From IMG/VR virus record IMGVR_UViG_3300027608_000013: a DNA stretch of 64,000 nt; one strand, written 5' to 3'. The translations under genes and the position numbers were made by a program. The notes under the pieces were generated by a model. The model saw nothing but the letters and a program-made list of their open reading frames with translations. It searched no databases and was not told where the DNA came from. Origin of the DNA: a virus. Positions 3,228-25,095 of this stretch are shown here, piece by piece (positions within the stretch are counted from its first letter, which is position 1; the number at the start of each line of letters is the position of its first letter).

Positions 3228-3634
3228 TAGCCGTAGTATGTTACGGATACTGCAGACAAATATCAAGTCGAAGAAGAACCCATATACGAATACATAAAGT
3301 AATACAAGTAAAGCATATAAGTATATGTATAAGAATACGTATGCATATGTATGGTATCCTTTACTAGCATGGCGTACTTGGCGGAAGAGTCTAGTATGCG
3401 TTTAAGCATTCCGTTATTTTTAATGCATTATCAGTAAAAACTCTACTCTTATATTGAGATGGTATTGCAAGTTGAGTGTCTAGTAGCATCAGAGTGGAAT
3501 GGTTAGATATCTCCCTCCCGGTCCTACTTGTTTACTAGGGGCATAGTCTCTATATTGCGATTCCATTGATATCCAACCCTAATACATGGCCTCGATGTTC
3601 TTAAACGAACTGAAAGGCGCCAATAAGGGATACG

Positions 3635-4031
3635 CTATTTTTAAGTGAAATCCCGGCTATTTTTAGGTGAAATGCCAGATCTATTTTTAGAAGGAGTGGT
3701 TCTATTTTTAGAAGGAGTGGTTCTATTTTTAGTCCAATGCACGTTCTATTTTTAGTCTCTATATATAGTGTATTTGCTTTTAGATGCATTCACGTATATA
3801 TAGCGAGTAACCTGATACCATGTATATAGTGCATGTAGTGCTGATTGCGTTCAGATTGCTAGCTATTGAGCGTCCTATTTTTAGAGCAATTGCCGTACAT
3901 TTTTAGACGATCTCCCTCTCCCCGGTCTATTTTTAGACGAAATCAGGTTATTTTTAGAAAAAATATCCTATTTTTAGACGAAATCATGTATCTGGTTTTA
4001 GTCCTATTTTTAGTCCATACCCTATTTTTAG
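3635..4031. repeat. array of ~14 CTATTTTTAG iteron-like repeats, mostly 20-24 bp apart
   Basis: Copies start at 3635, 3657, 3681, 3702, 3723, 3746, 3875, 3897, 3927, 3948, 3968, 3992, 4004 and 4022 (a few with mismatches); non-coding context. Confidence 0.85.
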
Positions 4032-4094
4032 CCCCATAAACGCATATTTAGTTCAGATCACTAGCTATACAGAGTAAACTTTTTCCGGGTTTTG

Positions 4095-4126
4095 GTTGGA
4101 TTCTGGATGTATATTCCATATAATAT
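4095..4126 (+). promoter_or_regulatory. putative promoter GTTGG-N19-TATAATAT driving the 29-aa peptide and downstream RNA
   Basis: Same 24-nt offset between boxes as the other TTGG/TTAGG promoters in the window. Confidence 0.55.
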
Positions 4127-4144
4127 AAGTGTAAGTAAGAAGAT

Positions 4145-4234
4145 ATGAAAAAAGTATTTGATACCACGCTAATCGTATTAGCAGTAGCAGGTTGGATGTT
4201 TGCAATTGCAGTAGCAGTTACAATGAGCATCTAA
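4145..4234 (+). CDS. 29-aa single-TM peptide (MKKVFDTTLIVLAVAGWMFAIAVAVTMSI)
   Basis: Read by hand; upstream promoter; hydrophobic core. Confidence 0.6.
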   Translation: MKKVFDTTLIVLAVAGWMFAIAVAVTMSI

Positions 4235-4248
4235 AACTAAAAATCAAC

Positions 4249-4426
4249 GAGGGATCGTAGCCAATGGCTCGACCTCACCATATAAGTAGGATCGTAATGT
4301 GTCGGCTTCGTGTCGTAATGAGTCGGTCCTACTACACATTTACGCGGCCTGGTTCACTCTCTTATTTTCCAGGCGGCGGCTTAAGGCACTCGGGTTCACT
4401 CTCTTATTTCCCGGGTGCTTTTTTTT
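4249..4426 (+). ncRNA. putative four-hairpin small RNA with two loops antisense to early-gene leaders
   Basis: Stems 4249-4276, 4285-4333, 4343-4378 and 4383-4421. The last two loops are TTCACTCTCTTATTT(T). G-U pairs and a U-tract at 4419-4426 indicate the + strand. Confidence 0.7.
4383..4426 (+). terminator. intrinsic terminator (last hairpin of the RNA plus U8)
   Basis: AAGGCACTCGGG/CCCGGGTGCTTT stem followed by a T-run. Confidence 0.7.
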
Positions 4427-4439
4427 ATACACAAAAAAT

Positions 4440-4459
4440 TGTGAATAACTTGTGAATAA
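4440..4459 (-). promoter_or_regulatory. two tandem DnaA-box-like sites (TTATTCACA on the - strand); third copy at 5223-5231
   Basis: TGTGAATAA at 4440-4448 and 4451-4459; fits TT(A/T)TNCACA. Confidence 0.5.
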
Positions 4460-4539
4460 CTCGTCCAAACATTTCTCCAAATAAATTAGGTTAATTGAAA
4501 TAAAATGCTTATCTTTAAGTATAATAAAAAATAAGAGTT

Positions 4540-4935
4540 ATGAAAAAAGCAAAAAAAGTAGAATTTGGAATTGAGATTACAAAGCCTTGGAGTACTGAAA
4601 TGTATGACCACAATGAGCAAGTAGCTGATGTGGTACGCGATAAATTATTTTTGATGTGGGATGCGGCCATGGAGCTATTAGAGCAATCCTTAGAGTTAAA
4701 TGATGAAGGCTTTGAAATTGACATATTAGATTTGGAATGGAAAGGATATGTTAATGATGAGTTATTGACAATTCAAAAAGCCGTTACATGTTATGGATTT
4801 GGAACGGGCTACACGGTTGGAGATGTAGCAGAGCGAGTATCACAAGAAATAATAGATGCTCAATTATATCGTTTAAATGAGATAGCAGAAGAATTAGAGT
4901 TAGAGTTAGAGAAAGGATTTGTTGGTTTTAATTAA
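4540..4935 (+). CDS. early acidic hypothetical protein
   Basis: ORF track; class A promoter and AATAAGAG leader. Confidence 0.8.
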   Translation: MKKAKKVEFGIEITKPWSTEMYDHNEQVADVVRDKLFLMWDAAMELLEQSLELNDEGFEIDILDLEWKGYVNDELLTIQKAVTCYGFGTGYTVGDVAERVSQEIIDAQLYRLNEIAEELELELEKGFVGFN

Positions 4936-5025
4936 CCAGCAAACTTTTTTGAAACTTTTCTGGTAAAAGATTAGGTTCCTAACATTATTTACCTTATCTT
5001 TATATTAATTAAAAAAATAAGAGTT

Positions 5026-5220
5026 ATGAAAAAAGTAGATTTAAAGAACAAGCAGCGAGTGTGGGTTAATAACGGCACTGACAGAGTAATGTTAGGACGA
5101 GTAAAAATGCTCCCTAACGGGTATACAACTTTAACGGATCCGAAAGGGTTTGTATTTTCAGTAGCACTTTTAGAATCTAAATATGCGGATCTGAATTTTG
5201 AAATTTACGAGCCTATATAA
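5026..5220 (+). CDS. early hypothetical protein
   Basis: ORF track; class A promoter and leader. Confidence 0.75.
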   Translation: MKKVDLKNKQRVWVNNGTDRVMLGRVKMLPNGYTTLTDPKGFVFSVALLESKYADLNFEIYEPI

Positions 5221-5313
5221 ATTGTGAATAACTTTTTTTAAAAAAGTTTCAAAAAGATTAGGTTTCGAACAAAAAAATGCTTATCTTTAAGTATAATAAA
5301 AAATAAGAGATAT

Positions 5314-5565
5314 ATGACAAAAATCAAAGTTCCAGCAAGAGTTAAAAAAAATAAGCTTGACAGCTTAACAAATTGGTTTACCCAATCCAATGCCGAGACG
5401 GCAGCCGCATTATTTGGCACTAATACCTCAAAGATTATCGTTGCATTGGATGGCACCGGCTATATGGCGTCATTTGGTAGATGCAAATCAGACGGGTTTA
5501 GTGACGGGCATTTAAAGTTTGTCAAATTGAGAAAGATTGAAGACGGGTTTTGGTCATTTATATAA
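5314..5565 (+). CDS. early hypothetical protein
   Basis: ORF track; class A promoter and leader. Confidence 0.75.
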   Translation: MTKIKVPARVKKNKLDSLTNWFTQSNAETAAALFGTNTSKIIVALDGTGYMASFGRCKSDGFSDGHLKFVKLRKIEDGFWSFI

Positions 5566-5584
5566 TTAACTAAAAATAAGAAAA

Positions 5585-5818
5585 ATGAGTTTAACAGCAA
5601 GATTAATAGACGGAGGTTGGGAAACAGTCGACCTTAAAAGAAGAAATGTAAAACCAGGAGATGCGGTTGTCAACCGCTTTGATATGTTTGGCACCTTGCT
5701 TAAGATTACCAAGAAAGGTAATTATGTAGTTAGTTTCGATATTGATTATGCAGATGATAAGCCAACTAAATTTTCAGCCCAGGAGTTTGAAAGAATCTTT
5801 CTTGTAGATAAAAGATAA
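5585..5818 (+). CDS. early hypothetical protein (possible small beta-barrel)
   Basis: ORF track; VKPGDAVV...G.LL...YVVSF pattern. Confidence 0.7.
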   Translation: MSLTARLIDGGWETVDLKRRNVKPGDAVVNRFDMFGTLLKITKKGNYVVSFDIDYADDKPTKFSAQEFERIFLVDKR

Positions 5819-5913
5819 ACATTTTCGAAAAAAAGTTTGCAAAAGATTAGTAAAAAAGGGTAACCCTTTTAAGTTTTTTGGTTATAATAGTATAAATTAA
5901 AAAGAGAGAGAAT

Positions 5914-6189
5914 ATGAAAAAGACAATGTTGGTTACCCGGATCCATAATTTGCTTGAGGCGGATTCGGATCGTAAAAAATTAATTGGATCAGCAATGGTA
6001 AAAAATCAATCCGGTTTTAGTCCATTGACACTCAATATAGCAACCGGGTTTGCTGGAGATTATGGAATTGATTCGCGAATAGATATATTATCAGGGATGC
6101 AATTAATGGATCTGGAGCTAATTGAATTAGAATTAAGCTCGATAAAAAAAGTTGGTAAAAAAGTAAAAAAAGTTGGTAAAAAAGGGTAA
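5914..6189 (+). CDS. early hypothetical protein; C-terminus runs into the promoter repeat
   Basis: ORF track; class B promoter; tail KKVGKKVKKVGKKG is encoded by the A-tract repeat. Confidence 0.7.
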   Translation: MKKTMLVTRIHNLLEADSDRKKLIGSAMVKNQSGFSPLTLNIATGFAGDYGIDSRIDILSGMQLMDLELIELELSSIKKVGKKVKKVGKKG

Positions 6190-6239
6190 CCCTTTTGAAA
6201 TATTTGGTTATAATAGTATAAATTAAAAAGAGAGAGAAT

Positions 6240-6566
6240 ATGAGTTTACAAAAGTTTTTTATGGAAGGAGCATTGGAATATGGAATTCCAGGCATTAATG
6301 TTGAAATTGTTAAGAATCCAGGATCCAAGCAAACAAAGCAGGAAACATTTAAAATTACCGACACTATTACCGGCCGGGAGTATTTTATCCGCAGTGGTGA
6401 GGTTGGGTGTGGTTGGGCCACTGTTAAATGTGGTAAGTCACGTAACGTAACCCAATATGGAGTATTGTCATTAGGCGGTGGAATCGGCCAATTGGATTTG
6501 CAGGATTCTGTATTTGTAGTGGAACGGCATATTGCTAAGCAGAGAAAAAAGTTTCAAAAAAAGTAA
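6240..6566 (+). CDS. early hypothetical protein
   Basis: ORF track; class B promoter. Confidence 0.75.
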   Translation: MSLQKFFMEGALEYGIPGINVEIVKNPGSKQTKQETFKITDTITGREYFIRSGEVGCGWATVKCGKSRNVTQYGVLSLGGGIGQLDLQDSVFVVERHIAKQRKKFQKK

Positions 6567-6661
6567 AAATAGTTGCTAAAAGATTAGGTTCCTATCATAA
6601 AAATGCTTATCTTTATATATAGGAATTAAGAGTTATAAATTAAATTAAAAAAAAAGAGAGT

Positions 6662-6853
6662 ATGGCAAGTGTAAAAAAGAATTCCGCATTTTTTCAGCAA
6701 GGAGCAGTAATAAGCAAATTGAGTGCAGATGCAAGAAAGCCGCAAGAGTTGAACGCAGTAGTTAAAGCAGCAATGTTGCAAGCAGAAAGAAACCGAGTAT
6801 ATAGAGCCGAGCAAGAAGCTAAGGCAAAATTGAATCCTCGCTTTATAAGATAA
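6662..6853 (+). CDS. early small basic helical protein
   Basis: ORF track; class A promoter. Confidence 0.7.
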   Translation: MASVKKNSAFFQQGAVISKLSADARKPQELNAVVKAAMLQAERNRVYRAEQEAKAKLNPRFIR

Positions 6854-6934
6854 GCGCGGATAAAAAAGTTGCATAAAAAGGGTAACCCTTTGCAAAAAAA
6901 AGGTTATAATAGTATAAATTAAAAAGAGAGAAAT

Positions 6935-7189
6935 ATGAAAGATTTACAGCAAATTGCATTTACAGATTTAGAAAATGACGAGATATATCTTTTGGCATTA
7001 ATTGACAACGGTTGTTATGTTCCAGAGTTAAAGGTAGCTACGGGAGCTGAAATTAAGGAATTCATATTAATGGAAAATGAGTGTATGTTTGACGATGACG
7101 ACAATCTTCTTACGGATAATGAGAAATTGCAATTAATTGAAGAAAACTTCGACGTTGAGGTATATGCACTAGCATTTATCATGCCATAA
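6935..7189 (+). CDS. early small highly acidic protein
   Basis: ORF track; class B promoter; D/E-rich. Confidence 0.75.
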   Translation: MKDLQQIAFTDLENDEIYLLALIDNGCYVPELKVATGAEIKEFILMENECMFDDDDNLLTDNEKLQLIEENFDVEVYALAFIMP

Positions 7190-7284
7190 AAAAGTTTCAA
7201 AAAAAAGATTAAAAAAAGTTTCGGAAAAAGGGTAACCCTTTTGAAATATTTGGTTATAATAGTATAAATTAAAAAGAGAGAAAA

Positions 7285-7680
7285 ATGGAAAAAGTAAATT
7301 TAGCAGAACAATTGAATGCATACGCGTCAGGAAGAATAATTGACAGCGAAGGAGACCAAAATAGTTGTTTTAACTTTTATGATTGGTTTTGCAAAGATTC
7401 ATCATTGGAGCGCAAAGCAAACATATTATTCCCTAAGGTAAAACGTTTCCTCAAAGAAAATTCAGAGATCGACATCTTAAGCACGTATGTATTCTTTAAA
7501 AATAATTGTCCGATGAATGGACCGTTGTATGACGATTTCCGCATATGTAACGAGAACGAAGTTTTATTCACAGTAATTCCCAAATGTGGCCATTCCGGCA
7601 AAGCTGAAATATGGGGAAAGAATGATTCCGGAAAATTTGAATGCTTGAAAAGCGCTAAAACATTTTCGAAACTTTTCTGA
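7285..7680 (+). CDS. early hypothetical protein (FYDWFC...FFKNNCP...LYDDFR)
   Basis: ORF track; class B promoter. Confidence 0.8.
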   Translation: MEKVNLAEQLNAYASGRIIDSEGDQNSCFNFYDWFCKDSSLERKANILFPKVKRFLKENSEIDILSTYVFFKNNCPMNGPLYDDFRICNENEVLFTVIPKCGHSGKAEIWGKNDSGKFECLKSAKTFSKLF

Positions 7681-7757
7681 GAAAAGATTAGGATCCTATC
7701 ATTATTTACCTTATCTTTAAGTATAGGAATTAAGAGTTATAAATTAAAAAAGAGAGA

Positions 7758-8498
7758 ATGAAAAAAAGAATTCATGTTGGAAATGGCGCAATTGTATCAG
7801 ATGTTGCTAGTGTAGCAATTTATGTTAAAGAGATTAAGAAAACGGCAAACATTGCCACTACCGACCAAAAGGCATTAGCTGAGGCAATGGTAGCAGGAAG
7901 CATCGATGCCCGTAACAAATTGATTGAAACCAATTTACGGTTTGCAATCCAGGTAGCCCGTCAATATCAGGGAATGGGATTGAAGTTAGAGGATTTGATT
8001 GGGTTTGCTAATTTAGGATTGTTTGAAGCCGCAGAGCGCTTTGATATCACAAAAGGAGTTAAATTCATTACCTTCGCAGTATGGTATATCCGTGCCGAGA
8101 TCCAAAAGGCTTTGAATGACTTATCCAGAACAGTTAGGATCCCATCACACCGTACCGCAACTGAACCATATTCCACAAAGAGTATCCACACTCCAGTAGG
8201 CGATGATGAAAATAAAGAAACCTATGCAGACCGCTATTTGGAGGCAGAGAGCAATCAATCAGCACGCGAGACGGCGGATATGCGATTCGATTTGCAAAGA
8301 GCATTAGACCAATTACCAGACAAGCAACGCATTGCAATATGCATGAACTATGGCTTCGGCTATGAGTATGCCAAGCCAATGGAGCAGATAGCTGAGGAGT
8401 TAGGTGTTACCGGAGAGCGCGCACGTCAATTGGTAAGATTGGCTGAGAAAGGATTACAAGCAATGCCAGGCATCAAATTGTTGGAACAATACTTGTAA
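7758..8498 (+). CDS. phage-encoded sigma-70 family (RpoD/RpoS-like) RNA polymerase sigma factor
   Basis: Region 2 NKLIETNLRFAIQVARQY...EDLI...GLFEAAERFD...KFITFAVWYIR; RTVRIP; region 4 HTH MEQIAEELGVTGERARQL; region 3 looks shortened. Confidence 0.92.
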   Translation: MKKRIHVGNGAIVSDVASVAIYVKEIKKTANIATTDQKALAEAMVAGSIDARNKLIETNLRFAIQVARQYQGMGLKLEDLIGFANLGLFEAAERFDITKGVKFITFAVWYIRAEIQKALNDLSRTVRIPSHRTATEPYSTKSIHTPVGDDENKETYADRYLEAESNQSARETADMRFDLQRALDQLPDKQRIAICMNYGFGYEYAKPMEQIAEELGVTGERARQLVRLAEKGLQAMPGIKLLEQYL

Positions 8499-8590
8499 AA
8501 AAAGTTTCCAAAAAAGCAAAAATAGTTGGTAAAAAATTAGGTTAATTGGAAAAAAATGCTTATCTTTAAGTATAATAAAAAATAAGAGAT

Positions 8591-8707
8591 ATGAAAAAAT
8601 TAGAAATTCTTAGTAAGCCATACCAATTGGCAATTGCAGTATTAGTAATAGGCGGAATGATAGGATTCGTAGCCTATGGAATAATAAACAATGTAATCCT
8701 TAAGTAG
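8591..8707 (+). CDS. 38-aa single-TM peptide
   Basis: Read by hand, MKKLEILSKPYQLAIAVLVIGGMIGFVAYGIINNVILK; class A promoter and leader. Confidence 0.7.
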   Translation: MKKLEILSKPYQLAIAVLVIGGMIGFVAYGIINNVILK

Positions 8708-8708
8708 T

Positions 8709-8798
8709 ATGATATCAGAATTTGCAAGCAACCTAGTTTACCTGAGCTTAGTGCTCAATTTGTTTTTGATCCTTAAATGTTTAACCCATAAAAAATAA
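8709..8798 (+). CDS. 29-aa single-TM peptide
   Basis: Read by hand, MISEFASNLVYLSLVLNLFLILKCLTHKK. Confidence 0.55.
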   Translation: MISEFASNLVYLSLVLNLFLILKCLTHKK

Positions 8799-8802
8799 GA
8801 GT

Positions 8803-8889
8803 ATGATGTCAGAAAAAGAATTCGAAGCAATGGTTACACAAGTAACATTAGCAGTGCACGCAGTAATTTATTCAGGCCAATATAGCTAA
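8803..8889 (+). CDS. 28-aa peptide
   Basis: Read by hand, MMSEKEFEAMVTQVTLAVHAVIYSGQYS; AAAATAAGAGT leader. Confidence 0.6.
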   Translation: MMSEKEFEAMVTQVTLAVHAVIYSGQYS

Positions 8890-8996
8890 AAAAAGTTTAA
8901 AAAAAGTTTGCAAAAAAGGGTAACCCTTTTGTAAAAAAAGGTTATAATAGTATAAATTAGAAAGGCAATAATGCCGCAATTAAAAAAAGAGAGAAT

Positions 8997-9269
8997 ATGA
9001 AAAAATGCACAAAAAGGGAATTTGAAGGAATTGTTGATTGTATTGGAGTATTGAATAATTCATTCTCTGGACCAACCGGAGAGAAGTTAGGCCAATGCGT
9101 TATCTTTGCCGGAGAGGAGATGGGTTGTCTAAATAGAATGTCAAAAATACTTGAATTTGAATTCCATATAGTAGAGGAGTTTATTGACAGGAACAGCAAC
9201 AGATGCATTATTGTAGAGTTAGGCGCAGCAACTATTGAAACAGCTCCGGATCTAATGCAGATGAAATAG
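8997..9269 (+). CDS. early hypothetical protein
   Basis: ORF track; class B promoter. Confidence 0.7.
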   Translation: MKKCTKREFEGIVDCIGVLNNSFSGPTGEKLGQCVIFAGEEMGCLNRMSKILEFEFHIVEEFIDRNSNRCIIVELGAATIETAPDLMQMK

Positions 9270-9386
9270 TTAAAAAAAAAGTAAAAAAAGTTTCAAAAAG
9301 ATTAGGATCGCATTGATTTATTCCTTATCTTTATATATAGGAAGTTAGGGAATAGTCCCAAAGTTTAAAAAACAAAAACAGAGAGT

Positions 9387-9785
9387 ATGAAAAAAGCAGA
9401 TTTAATTGCGCAATTAGAGGGAGCAAAGGCGCTAACCTCAGTAGTATCAATCGACAATGTAATTGCATTAATCCAAGGCTTGGAGGCAGAAGTGCGCGTT
9501 GAAAAGCAGTTGGGCATGTCCCAGGAGTTAGCAGAAGCCATTGCTGAAAAAATTGAAAGAGCCTTAGATTATAATTCATCAGACTTAGTAGATAAAGATT
9601 CCGCAGAGTTTGAATTAAATTATGACAACCGTATTGAATTGAATAGTGTAGAAGTTAGTGTACGGGAAATTATGACGCACGTTGAAGCCGCATTGGATAA
9701 CTTTGTAATTGAAGAAGATGAAGAAGAGACGGACGGATTCATTGAGGCACAAATTGAAGCAGAGCAAGCTGCATCGGAAGAGTAA
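9387..9785 (+). CDS. early highly acidic protein
   Basis: ORF track; class A promoter. Confidence 0.8.
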   Translation: MKKADLIAQLEGAKALTSVVSIDNVIALIQGLEAEVRVEKQLGMSQELAEAIAEKIERALDYNSSDLVDKDSAEFELNYDNRIELNSVEVSVREIMTHVEAALDNFVIEEDEEETDGFIEAQIEAEQAASEE

Positions 9786-9787
9786 AC

Positions 9788-9853
9788 ATATCTCTCAACA
9801 TAGTCCCAGGGTCAGCAGCAATGTTGGCCCTTGCGGACGTAAAAGAGAGATAT
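9788..9853 (+). promoter_or_regulatory. hairpin that sequesters the leader of the next gene (GCAA tetraloop)
   Basis: ATATCTCTC(9788-96) pairs with GAGAGATAT(9845-53); GTCC/GGAC; inner stem 9808-9831 with a GCAA loop. Confidence 0.6.
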
Positions 9854-10039
9854 ATGAAAAAATTTAAAGTTATAACAGAAGCCCAATGGCGAGCATTAAA
9901 TGAACAATGTGACTTTGTTGACTACATAGGCGAATGTATACACAGAGGAAATACATGCTATCAGATGCAAATCATGAGTACTAATAGCGTCGACCGGGTC
10001 GTATATGATTATGTAATAATTGACCCAAAATGGCGCTAA
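9854..10039 (+). CDS. early hypothetical protein
   Basis: ORF track 9821..10039; likely start MKKFKV at 9854 after the GAGAGA leader. Confidence 0.7.
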   Translation: MKKFKVITEAQWRALNEQCDFVDYIGECIHRGNTCYQMQIMSTNSVDRVVYDYVIIDPKWR

Positions 10040-10121
10040 ACTTTTCTGAAAAAAAGTTACCAAAAGATTAGGTTCCTAACATTATTTACCTTATCTTTAA
10101 GTATAATAAAAAATAAGAGAT

Positions 10122-10385
10122 ATGAAAAAGTTTCCAGTTTACATCACCCACAACCAATTCGGTTACGCAAACCCATCTGCAATTAGTACTAGCTCCAATG
10201 AAGTTGTCTTTGATATGAATAAGATATCTGAGGAACTTAAGGCAAAGGTATTCGGCCAAATTGGTATTGTAGAATTAACCTGGGCTGAGATGATTGAAAT
10301 ATCAGATGCTCGAACCGCAGTGCGTAGAGTAGGTGCTAAAATGTTTGAAAATATTTTCAAAAAAGTTACCAAAAGATTAGGATAA
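10122..10385 (+). CDS. early hypothetical protein
   Basis: ORF track; class A promoter; C-terminus KKVTKRLG is encoded by the next promoter repeat. Confidence 0.75.
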   Translation: MKKFPVYITHNQFGYANPSAISTSSNEVVFDMNKISEELKAKVFGQIGIVELTWAEMIEISDARTAVRRVGAKMFENIFKKVTKRLG

Positions 10386-10456
10386 TTGAAATAAATTCCT
10401 TATCTTTATATATAGGAATTAAGAGTTATAAATTAAAAAACAAAAAAAAAGAGAGT

Positions 10457-11395
10457 ATGACAAATGTGTTTAAACCGGTTAGAATTAAAGGAAAGTTATT
10501 TGGAAAGAATGTTGCAAACGGAGAGATTGCAGGAAAAGATGTGATTAGACACATCCAGTTATTGAATGCCGAAAAGAACAATGAGATATTGTTTGTAGGA
10601 GTTAATGGTCGAGTAACACGTATGCTAGCATCGCAATCAACGACTCCAAGTGCACCGCAGAAGCTGTCATTTATGTCAGTTAAGCAGCAGCAGGATCCAC
10701 AGGTAATGTTTGACAATATTGAGCGCTTGACTAAAATGGTAGGCAAAGGCATCCAACCGTCTCTAGTAATTACCGGAGGAGCTGGAATGGGCAAGACACA
10801 CCTAGTAAAAAGTACTTTAGAAGGAATGGGCTTAAGAGAGTCATATGACTTTGTTCACTTCAAAGGTAGAGCTACCGCAGCCGGCTTGTTTATTACGCTA
10901 TATGAGAACAGCGACAAGATTATTGTATTGGATGACTGTGACTCTGTATTCCGAGATGACGATGCAGTTAATATTCTTAAGGGAGCATTAGACAGCTATG
11001 ACACTCGCAAGATATCTTATATAACAAGCAAAGCCCTAAAAGATGAATATGGCAGCGAAGTACCTCGTCATTTTGAATTCACAGGCAGGATTATCTTTAT
11101 AAGCAACATAAGCCAAAGCCGCTTGGATGAAGCAATTAGATCCCGTAGCTTTGTAGCAGATGTGGATTTGACAACCGACCAAATGTTTACCAGAATGGAG
11201 CAATTGCTTCCGACAATGGAGTCTCGCATCCCGATGGCAGCTAAGGAGCAAGCCCTTAGACTAATGAAGGAATTGGATGCCGAGTTTGAAGGCTTAGAGA
11301 TAAACCTCAGAAGCTTTATTAAAGCAGCAAGGATATGTGCAATGGGATTTGACGATCCAAAAATGATGATAGCAGAACAAATTATTGCTCAATAA
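10457..11395 (+). CDS. AAA+ family ATPase
   Basis: Walker A GGAGMGKT, Walker B IIVLDDCD, IIFISN sensor, AIRSR arginine finger. Confidence 0.85.
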   Translation: MTNVFKPVRIKGKLFGKNVANGEIAGKDVIRHIQLLNAEKNNEILFVGVNGRVTRMLASQSTTPSAPQKLSFMSVKQQQDPQVMFDNIERLTKMVGKGIQPSLVITGGAGMGKTHLVKSTLEGMGLRESYDFVHFKGRATAAGLFITLYENSDKIIVLDDCDSVFRDDDAVNILKGALDSYDTRKISYITSKALKDEYGSEVPRHFEFTGRIIFISNISQSRLDEAIRSRSFVADVDLTTDQMFTRMEQLLPTMESRIPMAAKEQALRLMKELDAEFEGLEINLRSFIKAARICAMGFDDPKMMIAEQIIAQ

Positions 11396-11556
11396 TCGAT
11401 CTCTCGCAAAGGGTCCGGCATCGCAAGGTGTCGGATTACTGCTGTAAAATAAAGTAAAAATAGTTGCCAAAAGATTAGGTTCCTAACATTATTTTCCTTA
11501 TCTTTATGTATAGCAATTAGGGAAAGGCCCTAAGCTTAATTTAAAAAATAAGAGAT

Positions 11557-11853
11557 ATGAAGACTATGAGAAAAGAGAGAGACCCTAAAGTGAGTGTTAA
11601 GAAGATACCACTAACAAAGGCAGCCATGATTACCAAGATGCAACTTACAGAAGCCGCAATGTTCTTAGAGTTAAAGAAGGCAGAACAGGAACATGGCAGA
11701 GACTCTAGATGGACAGCAATGCTACGCAGTCAATGGAGCACAGTGAATCAATTGATGGAGAACCTAGGCATCCCGACCGACTACCAAGCACCAGACAATG
11801 CCGCAGCCACAGCAATCATAATGGAACGCATTAGACAACAAGAGCAAGCATAA
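11557..11853 (+). CDS. early hypothetical protein
   Basis: ORF track; class A promoter and leader. Confidence 0.75.
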   Translation: MKTMRKERDPKVSVKKIPLTKAAMITKMQLTEAAMFLELKKAEQEHGRDSRWTAMLRSQWSTVNQLMENLGIPTDYQAPDNAAATAIIMERIRQQEQA

Positions 11854-11872
11854 GGCATAAGGCATATATATA

Positions 11873-12046
11873 AAGAACAAGGGGGGTAGGTAAGCCCCCC
11901 TATTTTACTGCCCCTATGCCCCCCCAAAAACAAGGGGGATGCCCCCCTAAGAACAAGGGGGATGGGGTGGGTTTCATTAAGGGGGTAACGACCCCCATCT
12001 AGGAGTGGGAGGTGATATGGCTTTTTCCCGCGCGGGGGAATTTTTT
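11873..12046. repeat. G-run/C-run hairpin cluster with 3x AACAAGGGGG
   Basis: GGGGGG..CCCCCC, CCCCCCC..GGGGG, GGGGG-TAACGA-CCCCC and TTTTTCCCGCGCGGGGGAA; non-coding. Confidence 0.75.
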
Positions 12047-15840: not shown

Positions 15841-15926
15841 CTGTTCTATGAAACTTTTTTGGTAAAATGCTTGGATCGCATTGATTTTTTTCTTATATTT
15901 AGTGTATAATTAAAAAATAAGAGAGT

Positions 15927-16154
15927 ATGAAAATTCATGAAGTAGACCAAGCACAGCAACGGGCTTTGGAATATGGTTGGCCCGGACGAAGTTCCGATTC
16001 GCCCCATGCAAAAACAGGAAAATTTACGGGATATTGGCCATCCGGGCGATTAGCTTGGAAAGGTAGCTTTGTTTCTGGCGAACAATATGGTGTTTGGCAA
16101 TATATAAGCAAAGACGGAAAATCCCAAGCAGACCATGTTTATTGTAATCTTTAA
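15927..16154 (+). CDS. small MORN-variant/YwqK-like repeat protein
   Basis: GKFTGYWPSGRLAWKGSFVSGEQYGVWQYISKDGK. Confidence 0.7.
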   Translation: MKIHEVDQAQQRALEYGWPGRSSDSPHAKTGKFTGYWPSGRLAWKGSFVSGEQYGVWQYISKDGKSQADHVYCNL

Positions 16155-24486: not shown

Positions 24487-24582
24487 TTTTTTTAAAAAAA
24501 GTTTTTACGTTGGTTGGATAGTACTGTATTATTTTATATTATAATAATATAAATAATTAGTTAACCATTTAAAATAAGAGAC

Positions 24583-25095
24583 ATGAAAAAGTTAGTATTA
24601 GGATTTGCATTAGTAATTGGAATGATTGGTAATGCTCAACAATATCGAGGAATGCGTCAAGCTGAATTTAACTTTTTAAAAAAATACAATATCAGTTACA
24701 TGTCCCCATGGGGTAGAAGTGTAATAAATGATGTTTCAAATTTCGAAAGCTTTACTACAACAGATAAACGAACTTTAAAAAAAGCGTATGATAAGTTTCT
24801 TATTTGGAATAATAAATTTTCTAATAATCCAATAAATTCTAATGTTATTTTAGAACAACAAGATTTTTACTTTAAAGAATTAGATCCAAACCCATACCAG
24901 ATTACAGGCTTAGTTCGTATTAATATCGATAGAGATGATATTGAATATATAGAAATAGTTGAATATACCGTATTCCGAGGTGGGGTAAAAGATTATGAAT
25001 CTATAATTTTAGTAAAATATATTTATCATCCCGTTGAGCATTATTGGAATGATACATTTTATGAAGAATGCGGACAATGTCCGACATTGAATTAA
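24583..25095 (+). CDS. secreted/periplasmic protein with signal peptide
   Basis: MKKLVLGFALVIGMIGNA|QQ; AAAATAAGAGAC leader. Confidence 0.75.
   Translation: MKKLVLGFALVIGMIGNAQQYRGMRQAEFNFLKKYNISYMSPWGRSVINDVSNFESFTTTDKRTLKKAYDKFLIWNNKFSNNPINSNVILEQQDFYFKELDPNPYQITGLVRINIDRDDIEYIEIVEYTVFRGGVKDYESIILVKYIYHPVEHYWNDTFYEECGQCPTLN

Follow-up and report, generated by a model that had tools for sequence, protein, structure and literature searches.

RNA element and predicted transcription unit

The stretch of DNA analysed here, referred to as the window, comprises 64,000 nucleotides from an uncultured freshwater phage of approximately 160 kb that looks lytic and T4-like. Ahead of a cassette of early genes (4.5-11.6 kb) lies a segment, 4249-4426, which on the + strand folds into four hairpins and a terminator with a minimum free energy of -70.6 kcal/mol (z = -6.08), a fold that was matched in none of 200 shuffles, whereas the opposite strand gives a z-score of only -2.36. 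The features of the segment and of the DNA 5' of it are as follows.

4096-4124, + strand: predicted promoter of the RNA unit, from a regular-expression scan (TTGGAT, 17-nt spacer, TATAAT)
4145-4234, + strand: 29-aa ORF, MKKVFDTTLIVLAVAGWMFAIAVAVTMSI, hydrophobic with one likely membrane span (gene call in L002)
4249-4276, + strand: hairpin 1, 5' domain, from the fold; sequence and length differ among relatives
4285-4333, + strand: hairpin 2, long stem, from the fold; helix 1 of the covariation analysis, with compensatory changes in 9/9 pairs
4343-4378, + strand: hairpin 3, first anti-leader loop, a 16-nt loop at 4353-4368, UUCACUCUCUUAUUUU
4383-4426, + strand (hairpin to 4421): hairpin 4, intrinsic terminator with the second anti-leader loop, a 15-nt loop at 4395-4409, UUCACUCUCUUAUUU

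The fold thus agrees with that described in the first-pass annotation, as does the arrangement of hairpins 3 and 4, in which one loop of 15-16 nt, UUCACUCUCUUAUUU(U), is carried on differing stems and both copies read TTCACTCTCTTATTT. In the predicted full transcript the unpaired probability of these loops is 0.96-1.0. The U-tract (4419-4426) lies 3' of hairpin 4 and, because this terminator, the G-U pairs in the stems and the fold energies all point the same way, the RNA is placed on the + strand, as had been claimed.

The earlier view of the element as a stand-alone small RNA of 178 nt is probably incorrect. Transcription is predicted to start at about 4131, the -35/17/-10 promoter layout is kept 5' of the RNA in relatives, and the 29-aa ORF is probably co-transcribed with the RNA, the element more likely forming the 3' domain of a longer transcript, of about 296 nt, in which the peptide is encoded too. 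Hydrophobic ORFs of 25-30 aa occupy the equivalent place in most relatives, and in the group formed by L020, L023, L024 and L015 the small ORF is replaced by a different structured RNA. The 29-aa ORF had no match to a Pfam family over threshold.

RNA-library contigs of a relative, for which neither strand nor ends are given, start at 4147, 4150 and 4167 and cross 4262; they continue for 55-99 nt into its 5' domain, none of them extending over the loops. These metatranscriptome contigs have a depth of 2.5-4.6, and they may reflect carry-over of DNA. Metatranscriptomes X15-X18 yielded one short contig per riverine run, on 4147-4262 only, with the loops and neighbouring genes uncovered, a lack of cover that carries no weight as evidence. 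An ORF at 4264-4455 was considered as coding sequence and ruled out, as indels of 1 nt and of 4 nt in homologues disrupt its frame; it has no Pfam match. A simple sigma-70 promoter scan was uninformative (37 sites against 28.8 expected), and a GGAUC motif in the 5' domain recurs, not convincingly above background.

Complementarity of the loops to early leaders

Directly 5' of the start codons of the early cassette stands a purine-rich tag, AAAAUAAGAGA(U/G) or AAAAAGAGAGA, from which the leaders of late genes differ (e.g. AAAGGTTAA and AAAGGAAC). The leaders listed in the first-pass annotation for genes 15927, 8591, 10122, 11557, 5314, 4540, 5026, 8803 and 24583, together with those of the AGAGAG type from 5914 to 10457, are all present as written. 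The anti-leader loops are antisense to the start regions of the early cassette, including that of the phage sigma-factor gene as the annotation had proposed, and not to those of late genes. The predicted target start regions, with their duplex energies, are listed below.

4522-4545, + strand: gene 4540, AAAAATAAGAGTT-ATG-AAA, -11.0 kcal/mol
5008-5031, + strand: gene 5026, -11.0 kcal/mol
5294-5316, + strand: gene 5314, -11.0 kcal/mol
5896-5916, + strand: gene 5914, AAAGAGAGAGAAT-ATG, -10.9 kcal/mol
6222-6242, + strand: gene 6240, -10.9 kcal/mol
6645-6664, + strand: gene 6662, -11.0 kcal/mol
6923-6940, + strand: gene 6935, -9.6 kcal/mol
7264-7287, + strand: gene 7285, -9.5 kcal/mol
7746-7763, + strand: phage sigma-factor gene (7758-8498), -10.8 kcal/mol
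8579-8596, + strand: gene 8591, -12.7 kcal/mol
8790-8807, + strand: gene 8803, -12.2 kcal/mol
8985-9002, + strand: gene 8997, -10.0 kcal/mol
9370-9389, + strand: gene 9387, -9.6 kcal/mol
9787-9859, + strand: gene 9854, cis pairing (from the fold) and predicted trans target, trans duplex -9.6 kcal/mol
10110-10127, + strand: gene 10122, -12.7 kcal/mol
10440-10459, + strand: gene 10457, -11.0 kcal/mol
11545-11562, + strand: gene 11557, -12.7 kcal/mol
15910-15929, + strand: gene 15927, best target, 13 contiguous nt, AAAATAAGAGAGT, -15.3 kcal/mol
24571-24588, + strand: gene 24583, outside the cassette, -12.6 kcal/mol

In the early cassette the duplex between loop and start region reaches -9.5 kcal/mol or lower in 17 of 18 genes (median -11.0), compared to 3 of the 66 other genes of the window (medians -2.0 to -2.7), in line with the earlier statement that late genes use other leaders; the difference is significant (Mann-Whitney p = 1e-9). 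The leaders are one repeated family, and the approximately 20 targets are therefore not independent events. With shuffled loops the number of cassette genes at this threshold averaged 2.0 and peaked at 10, none of 300 loops attaining 17. Complementarity of at least 10 nt adjoining an ATG occurs at 9 sites, where shuffles of the loop with matched composition give 0.65 (p ~0.005), and complementarity of at least 9 nt was found at 14 sites on the + strand and none on the minus strand, the RNA gene itself being excluded. At the level of 8-mers the match between loops and leaders in the window falls short of significance, owing to the AT-richness of the genome. Typical pairing extends over 8-11 contiguous bp and is A-U rich and, when the whole transcript was searched for duplexes, it was the loop regions that were chosen for 20/20 of the leaders tested.

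Two simpler roles for the tag were considered and rejected. It does not behave as a promoter element, as it stays at the ATG even where the promoter is displaced upstream by 35-50 nt (genes 6662, 7758, 9387, 10457 and 11557), nor does it resemble an ordinary Shine-Dalgarno sequence, as AAGAGAG pairs poorly with CCUCC in a comparison made by hand with what we take to be the 16S tail. If TATAAT is the -10 box of the class A promoters, this would leave a 5' UTR of no more than about 8 nt, with the tag lying partly outside the mRNA.

An alternative that we hold to be quite improbable is that the main targets are host mRNAs with purine-rich starts and that the RNA serves host takeover, the match to the phage leaders being a side effect of a composition that host and phage starts have in common. 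The phage sRNAs described in the literature have mostly host transcripts as their targets (e.g. bioRxiv 10.1101/2024.10.31.621285). Against this, the tag is specific to one class of phage genes and is lacking from 66 others, and the RNA and the tag co-occur across relatives.

Homologues in related phages

A covariance model of the RNA (R1) detected homologues in approximately 50 related phage contigs, with matches in 24/41 IMG/VR loci and 25/80 metagenome loci retrieved by way of the sigma-factor gene only. In this set every homologue lies on the + strand, at a distance of 1.3-4.4 kb 5' of the gene for the phage sigma factor. Covarying stems, which the first-pass annotation had suggested looking for, are evident in related phages: changes on both sides of the helix were seen in 21/25 pairs, and 93.9% of alignment cells are paired as against 32-54% when the partners are slid.

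A number of searches returned nothing of the kind. Rfam gave no match at gathering thresholds for the whole window or for the loci of three relatives, and a search of 3800-4800 with E-values up to 10 produced weak chance-level matches only, none of them to the C4 family. There was likewise no match in GenBank phages by blastn with 3800-4600, none in IMG/VR to the exact double-loop pattern, and no relatives in IMG/VR when the flanking 131-aa gene was the query. By these searches and by the covariance model, the RNA is a new family. A looser loop pattern picked out two unrelated IMG/VR loci, L044, which is a tandem repeat, and L045, which has no R1 match; a match to the 'Microcystis phage' Mel-JY01 (E = 0.37) proved spurious on inspection. 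Flavobacterium phage immuto, the portal protein of which is 49.6% identical, is without an RNA homologue, and the search of cultured relatives found no phage-host pair with the RNA.

The loop core CUCUCUUA is nearly invariant over approximately 50 loci while the stems vary freely, so that the same core is presented on stems as different as GGCCUGG/CCAGGC, GGGUUGG/CCAACCC and GGAUCUCGG/CCGAGAUCC. In relatives the loop reads UU(U)CUCUCUCUUAUU and is present in one or two copies; the earlier description of two anti-leader loops thus holds for the source phage but not for the whole family, some relatives having a single anti-leader loop. Of the 25 related loci with the 8-mer CUCUCUUA, 23 have it on the + strand inside these loops only, the exceptions being L015, with one extra copy, and L035, with a single copy and no such hairpin.

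This pattern of conservation bears on the suggestion that the element has no function in trans and is simply a structured 3' UTR or terminator of the peptide gene, or an insulator of the early cassette. Its position between the small ORF and the first cassette promoter would suit such a role and its last hairpin is a good terminator, but for termination or for stabilisation as a 3' UTR stems would suffice without any specific 15-nt loop, the stems are what changes freely and the loop what stays near-invariant, and 15-16 nt is unusually large for a terminator loop. We regard this explanation as very improbable.

Co-variation of loops and leaders

The same two leader types recur in all RNA-carrying phages, and a single consensus loop serves as the complement of both, AAUAAGAG as well as AAGAGAGAGAA. 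Where the sigma factor of a relative is less than 50% identical, leaders and RNA are both absent. Four lineages with altered loops show matching shifts in leader type, suggesting a weak co-variation of the kind that the first-pass annotation had proposed to look for: UUAUCU loops accompany GAUA(A)GAG leaders in L031/L032; ACUCUC and UUACU loops accompany GAGAGU leaders in L012/L013, in which AAUAAGAG is lost; and in L011, with the loop CUCUUUAC, AAAGAGA is found in 11/15 leaders. Leaders of the AAUAAGAG type make up 82/199 in phages with CUUAUU loops and 6/56 in those without. Loops match the leaders of their own phage better than in permuted pairings (p = 0.004, uncorrected, like the other co-variation tests, for phylogeny and leader paralogy), but the average effect is only 0.14 nt and many leaders of L028 and L031/L032 still mismatch their own loop at one position. 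The co-variation is small because loops and leaders are both so conserved.

The same observations can be set against the possibility, in our judgement a rather unlikely one, that a protein or the ribosome binds the C/U loops, the RNA acting as a decoy or sponge or as a mimic of the 16S tail, with the leader match secondary or coincidental. Candidate binders would be ribosomal protein S1, host or phage bS21, an RRM-type protein or a phage factor. An identical loop motif in one or two copies on differing stems is the layout of protein-titrating RNAs too, and the loop is identical at about 10 of 15 positions to what is presumably the 16S 3' end, GAUCACCUCCUUUCU. In addition bS21 is encoded in 3/3 of the relatives with full records searched, and the clade therefore does interfere with ribosomes. 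Protein binding, however, predicts neither a loop antisense to the phage's own tag over 10-13 nt, nor a consensus loop that covers both leader types, nor leader types that shift with the loop variants, and the rRNA-like CAC is missing in most relatives.

Comparison with known systems

The first-pass annotation knew of no described phage system of this kind, and a literature search likewise found no published one that combines a shared leader tag with an anti-leader RNA; the novelty does not extend to the general principle, the pairing of C/U-rich sRNA loops with ribosome-binding regions being familiar. Among phages, the c4 RNA of P1 and P7 and the CI RNA of P4 pair with their own transcripts near the ribosome-binding site and switch genes off. 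The present RNA resembles them in being a phage small RNA with short exposed sequences and predicted targets among the phage's own transcripts, but there is no sequence or Rfam relationship. Furthermore, c4 controls one operon (icd-ant) in temperate-phage immunity and is processed from the transcript of its own target, whereas here a lytic-looking T4-like phage has approximately 20 separately promoted genes that are tagged. In phage T4 the protein RegA represses many early mRNAs by occupying start regions of loose sequence. The predicted outcome is the same, repression of many early mRNAs by one phage product, but the proposed repressor is an RNA that would read a defined tag by base pairing.

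Several host-encoded RNAs offer parallels. LhrC of Listeria has several redundant C/U-rich loops and its family (RF00616) is the only one in Rfam with a similar layout; membership was rejected on a score of 20.9 bits (E = 2.1) against a gathering score of 110 bits. A C/U-rich terminator loop also provides the seed by which RepG of Helicobacter pylori pairs with a purine-rich leader (PMC8295292), as is proposed for the terminator loop here. Both differ from the phage RNA in being host-encoded and in targeting few host genes. In the likely host phylum, in which initiation is not led by Shine-Dalgarno sequences, GibS and FopS of Bacteroides thetaiotaomicron are base-pairing sRNAs whose seed, conserved and single-stranded, binds translation initiation regions and so brings about repression (PMC11697453); they too are host-encoded, their seed is at the 5' end and not in hairpin loops, and they have no sequence similarity to the phage RNA.

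There is also a likeness to the CcsR ('cuckoo') RNAs of Rhodobacter sphaeroides and other Alphaproteobacteria, which carry CCUCCUCCC in each of two hairpin loops (PMC8034643). Both have two hairpins sharing one C/U-rich loop complementary to ribosome-binding sequences, and in both the two same-loop hairpins lie 3' of a small ORF, in the phage within one predicted unit. The phage loop, however, is UUCUCUCUCUUAUU and not CCUCCUCCC, its ORF encodes a 29-aa hydrophobic peptide and not a DUF1127 protein, which places it outside the CIN1 subgroup, and it has no Rfam match. It is moreover encoded by a phage, its predicted targets being that phage's own early genes, with their private tag.

Proposed mechanism

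The RNA has several features of a trans-acting sRNA, namely a predicted promoter and terminator of its own, a conserved seed, covariation and above-chance complementarity to its putative targets. On balance it probably represents a new family of regulatory RNAs, encoded by phages, and pairs with the early leaders, most likely repressing their translation. Its production, its pairing in the cell, its timing and its action by repression in preference to activation are what we infer from the sequence.

Transcription of the RNA would proceed from its own promoter (~4096-4124) through the 29-aa ORF and end at the terminator at 4426, and the 3' domain would then display two redundant, fully unpaired C/U-rich loops. 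The cassette mRNAs would begin near the AGTATAAT stretch and have leaders of about 20 nt containing the tag. The loops would pair in trans with the tag before the early start codons, often extending over AUGAA, and the sigma-factor mRNA would be among the targets. A duplex over the ribosome landing site would most likely block 30S binding, and mRNA decay would perhaps be faster. As the RNA accumulated, the whole early class would be translated less, and together, and late genes would escape because their leaders differ.

An anti-leader sequence related to the RNA loops is predicted to act in cis as well, at 9787-9853, where AUAUCUCUC (9788-9797) pairs with the leader AGAGAGAUAU of gene 9854 (9843-9853) across a conserved hairpin, sequestering AGAGAGAUAU and the AUG. 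This pairing persists in 8 relatives, and L020 shows a compensatory change (CAUGUCUCU with AGAGACAUG).

The complementarity would be identical if the loops paired with the early leaders and activated them, by protecting 5' ends from ribonucleases, by opening structure or by recruiting ribosomes. The RNA gene heads the early region with a near-consensus promoter and may be made very early, which would suit an activator; the cis anti-leader sequence at 9787-9853 is not directly openable by a trans RNA, although other cis partners could compete. Activation is distinctly unlikely in our view, given that pairing spans the 10-13 nt immediately 5' of the AUG and in many cases the AUG as well, a position that blocks initiation elsewhere (GibS and FopS, PMC11697453; RepG, PMC8295292), and that the A-rich leaders, for which no structure is predicted, leave little to open.

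Should repression of the early class prove correct, it would constitute a regulon-wide post-transcriptional layer in which one conserved RNA reads a tag on approximately 20 early starts. It would work in hosts, probably Flavobacteriia, that make no use of Shine-Dalgarno sequences and in which the rules of initiation are still emerging. To our knowledge, timing in large lytic phages is known almost wholly as control of transcription, by sigma and anti-sigma factors and by modification of RNA polymerase, together with a few proteins, e.g. RegA of T4.

A broader scheme is possible, and we put it forward tentatively as doubtful in its entirety. A lytic phage of Bacteroidota would tag approximately 20 early genes, that of its own sigma factor among them, the sigma factor made from these early genes would drive the promoters of the RNA and of bS21, the RNA would silence the early genes and bS21 would favour late genes with Shine-Dalgarno sequences. 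The TTGGAT-N17-TATAAT promoter, which has a canonical -35/-10 layout, may be the one read by the phage sigma factor. If this scheme were true, an RNA and a ribosomal protein would form a two-part switch of translation from early to late. As for how widespread the RNA may be, the family is abundant, the linked sigma-factor gene having 388 metagenome relatives, mostly from freshwater.

The phage and its probable host

The window comes from an uncultured freshwater phage, and its sequence is also present on a 111-kb ENA contig and on a JGI contig. The gene content includes a T4-like terminase, portal and baseplate wedge, together with a sigma-70-family sigma factor at 7758-8498 (gene 7758; genes are named by start position), and Flavobacterium phage immuto, whose portal protein is 49.6% identical, is the nearest cultured relative by that protein. 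Complete relatives have genomes of about 160 kb, with terminal repeats, and ribosomal protein bS21 (PF01165, 38-39 bits) is encoded in all three relatives searched as full records (L052, L053, L054). The host is likely to belong to the Bacteroidota, probably to the Flavobacteriia.

A structured RNA with two identical loops

Folding of 4235-4435 gave four hairpins and a U-tract:
4249-4276, + strand, hairpin 1
4285-4333, + strand, hairpin 2
4343-4378, + strand, hairpin 3
4383-4421, + strand, hairpin 4
4419-4426, + strand, U-tract of eight U, 3' of the hairpins

This fold, already proposed in the first-pass annotation, has an MFE of -70.6 kcal/mol (z = -6.08), a stability reached by none of 200 dinucleotide shuffles, and the assignment to the + strand agrees with the z of -2.36 obtained for the opposite strand. 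Also as annotated, hairpins 3 and 4 have one loop in common, TTCACTCTCTTATTT(T), despite unrelated stems, and each loop nucleotide has a probability of 0.96-1.0 of being unpaired in the ensemble computed for the predicted full transcript. The overlapping ORF 4264-4455 was rejected as coding, and the element is thus regarded as non-coding, because its homologs differ by 1- and 4-nt indels and Pfam gave no match for it; no Rfam family matches the RNA element. The rival reading of the RNA as a mere terminator would account for hairpin 4 and the U-tract, and has to be weighed beside the conservation of the loop.

Relatives' loci (L-numbers) were collected solely via the sigma-factor gene, giving 41 loci from IMG/VR and, out of 388 relatives in metagenomes, the best 80. 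A covariance model built on six homologs found matches in 24 of the former and 25 of the latter; each is on the + strand and lies 1.3-4.4 kb 5' of the sigma-factor gene. Many loci are without a match because their sequence ends too near for the upstream region to be reached, and in a few (e.g. L011, L021, L028) variants of the RNA were overlooked by the model. The covarying stems that the annotation had named as a check are present: in a 26-row alignment, itself fitted to the model, standard pairs fill 93.9% of cells, against 32-54% with partners slid by 1-3 columns, both-sided changes occur in 21 of 25 pairs, and the observed covariation was equalled by no shuffle. Hairpins 3 and 4 have stems that differ wholly in sequence from lineage to lineage; the relatives' loop is UU(U)CUCUCUCUUAUU, with an almost invariant core, CUCUCUUA. 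Two such loops, as annotated, are found in the window and in some lineages, and one in others. Of the 25 related loci with CUCUCUUA as a + strand 8-mer, 23 have all copies inside these loops, the exceptions being L015, with one additional copy, and L035, whose sole copy is without such a hairpin. In L021 (~5710-5960) the variant has a single 29-nt loop with two C/U motifs (AUAUCUCUCUCUUAUCAUAUCUCUUCU) and lies directly 3' of a tRNA-like sequence with a CAU anticodon loop.

The RNA is closest in architecture to the CcsR "cuckoo" RNAs, in biology to the phage c4 and CI antisense RNAs and T4 RegA, and in seed layout to RepG and LhrC, the last being the sole Rfam hit of similar layout (20.9 bits, far below the threshold of 110). 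Tests for the defining motifs or model scores of these families were negative for the RNA, which therefore lies outside all of them. It represents a new family of RNA, and a variant of an already known regulatory kind; in the literature neither a phage sRNA aimed at a shared early-leader tag nor the RNA itself was found described.

The leader tag and its match to the loop

Between 4.5 and 11.6 kb the window has a cassette of about 18 small early genes, most with their own promoter copy. In most of them the final 12-15 nt 5' of the ATG form a purine-rich tag, AAAAAATAAGAG(A/T)T or AAAAAGAGAGA(A/G)(A)T. The tag was ruled out as a promoter element, since the tag still adjoins the ATG in genes 6662, 7758, 9387, 10457 and 11557, whose promoter core CCTTATCTTTA is a further 35-50 nt upstream; it therefore goes with the start codon.

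That the loops are antisense to early start regions, and that late genes differ, had been claimed in the first-pass annotation, and both claims withstood the calculation of duplex energies. A loop duplex of -9.5 kcal/mol or better is available to 17 of the 18 cassette genes (median -11.0) as against 3 of the 66 genes outside the cassette (medians -2.0 to -2.7; Mann-Whitney p = 1e-9), and two of these three, 15927 and 24583, bear the tag, 62972 being without it. Shuffled loops reached a mean of 2.0 and a maximum of 10 of the 18 cassette genes, and 0 of 300 attained 17. Sites adjoining an ATG and complementary over at least 10 nt numbered 9, compared with 0.65 for shuffled loops (p ~0.005). A loop scan of the whole window, the RNA gene excluded, returned 28 + strand sites and 6 minus strand sites at <= -10 kcal/mol, and of the best + strand sites roughly half are at early-type start codons. 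Taken from this one genome the evidence may be called moderate, because the leaders are paralogous copies of one another and at the 8-mer level the signal is lost in the AT-rich background; the comparative evidence weighs more. A protein or ribosome decoy is a less likely reading of the exposed loops, to be set beside their complementarity to the cassette start regions, as is the further proposal that the RNA acts on host targets.

Both leader types are present in all RNA-carrying phages, the complement of the consensus loop, AAUAAGAGAGAGAA, spans the two together (AAUAAGAG and AAGAGAGAGAA), and relatives with sigma factors of <50% identity have neither leaders nor RNA. A loop bound to match 10-20 leaders simultaneously would be expected to be nearly frozen, and such a loop is observed. 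UUAUCU loops occur with GAUA(A)GAG leaders in L031 and L032; L012 and L013 have ACUCUC and UUACU loops and GAGAGU leaders, AAUAAGAG being almost absent; and L011 has the loop CUCUUUAC and AAAGAGA leaders in 11 of 15 cases. AAUAAGAG leaders account for 82 of 199 in CUUAUU-loop phages against 6 of 56 in phages without CUUAUU loops, and a permutation test of own loop against own leader gave p = 0.004, with an effect of 0.14 nt and a statistic that ignores kinship. The loop/leader co-variation for which the annotation had advised a search is thus visible as shifts in several relatives and is suggestive only, because the tests take no account of phylogeny. (A UCUCUCUCU loop with AGAGAGAG leaders may be a counterpart in an unrelated phage, outside the window and its relatives.)

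A cis structure lies between genes 9387-9785 and 9854:
9787-9859, + strand, cis anti-leader structure, from the fold

Here an upstream AUAUCUCUC, just 3' of the stop codon of gene 9387-9785, pairs with AGAGAGAUAU and the AUG of gene 9854, and a conserved GC-rich hairpin sits between the two arms. The pairing is kept in eight relatives, with a compensatory change in L020 (CAUGUCUCU with AGAGACAUG), and in the L020/L023/L024/L015 group AUAUCUCUCAA also occurs in the 5' part of the trans RNA. These features show, independently, that in these phages selection acts on CUCUCU-to-AGAGAG pairing at start regions. The structure could serve for translational coupling or for sequestration; ORF 9821-10039 is probably spurious.

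Proposed mode of action

We favour, with moderate confidence, a trans-acting antisense RNA whose redundant loops would pair at early-class start regions, occluding the ribosome landing site and lowering translation of the class together, while late genes, with AAAGG-type leaders, would escape. An effect by repression rather than activation is suggested because the pairing would cover the 10-13 nt immediately 5' of the AUG, and frequently the start codon as well, and by the precedent of sRNAs such as GibS and FopS of Bacteroides, which repress at start regions (PMC11697453), and RepG (PMC8295292); a positive effect of the loop-leader pairing is the rival to this reading. The annotated control of the early regulon by one sRNA is partly supported: fold, conservation and start-region complementarity hold, and repression and timing are less firm, the latter being speculative.

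Predicted transcription unit and flanking sequences

Upstream of the RNA lie:
4096-4124, + strand, predicted promoter TTGGAT-N17-TATAAT, near-consensus
4145-4234, + strand, 29-aa hydrophobic ORF, between promoter and RNA

A tag-like leader (TAAGAAGAT) stands 3' of this promoter and before the ORF, and promoter and small hydrophobic ORF are retained in most relatives. Because the promoter precedes the ORF and the first cassette promoter begins only 3' of the RNA terminator, the transcript is likely to be ~4131-4426, roughly 296 nt, and would either have a dual function or serve as precursor to a 3'-UTR-derived sRNA, for which CcsR is a precedent (PMC8034643). The small RNA annotated at 4249-4426 accordingly stands as a structured RNA with a terminator, and is likely the 3' part of this longer unit. 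Three riverine metatranscriptome runs each gave one contig (171-195 nt, depth 2.5-4.6) matching 4147/4150/4167-4262 with 2-4 differences and continuing into 55-99 nt of a relative's 5' domain; these contigs, which are unstranded, have no defined ends and stop short of the loops, fit co-transcription of ORF and RNA in a close relative. One group of relatives has another structured RNA, ~200 nt long, in place of the small ORF. This domain (L020 ~5540-5790; also L023, L024, L015, L028 and L011, upstream of their RNA) has conserved motifs GGUUGAUCCAACC and ACCACAAGC...GCUAACACCUCC and a CACCUCC stretch resembling an anti-Shine-Dalgarno, and Rfam gave no match for it in three relative loci (L049-L051, the L016, L023 and L019 versions).

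The RNA-unit promoter has the canonical -35/-10 layout; the cassette promoters differ (TTAGGT-N17-TTATCT) and also resemble the Bacteroidota TTTG/TAnnTTTG type. The RNA-unit promoter belongs to a class found by sequence pattern:
4096, 15871, 16940, 21694, 24514, 27328, 46302, 46441, + strand, TTGGA(T/A)-N17-TA(T/A)(A/T)(A/T)T promoters

Neither the cassette promoters (GATTAGGTT-N17-TTATCTTTA) nor the late TATTTATAT boxes belong to this class, which may be read by the phage sigma factor. Directly upstream of the RNA-unit promoter, at 3634-4031 (+), CTATTTTTAG boxes form an array; they share the + strand, often follow one another at ~21 nt, and include 11 exact TATTTTTAG and degenerate copies (15 TATTTTTAG in the whole window against 2.45 expected); similar ATTTTTAG repeats occupy the corresponding position in L007, L016, L017 and L023. 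The array could be protein-binding, e.g. a regulator, origin or partition-like site. Just 3' of the terminator, at 4438-4463 (+), are two direct copies of TTGTGAATAAC, and TGTGAA is also found 3' of the terminator in L004, L005 and L016 (alignment A1). At the end of the early cassette, 11880-12040, there are GC-rich palindromic terminator-like hairpins on both strands.
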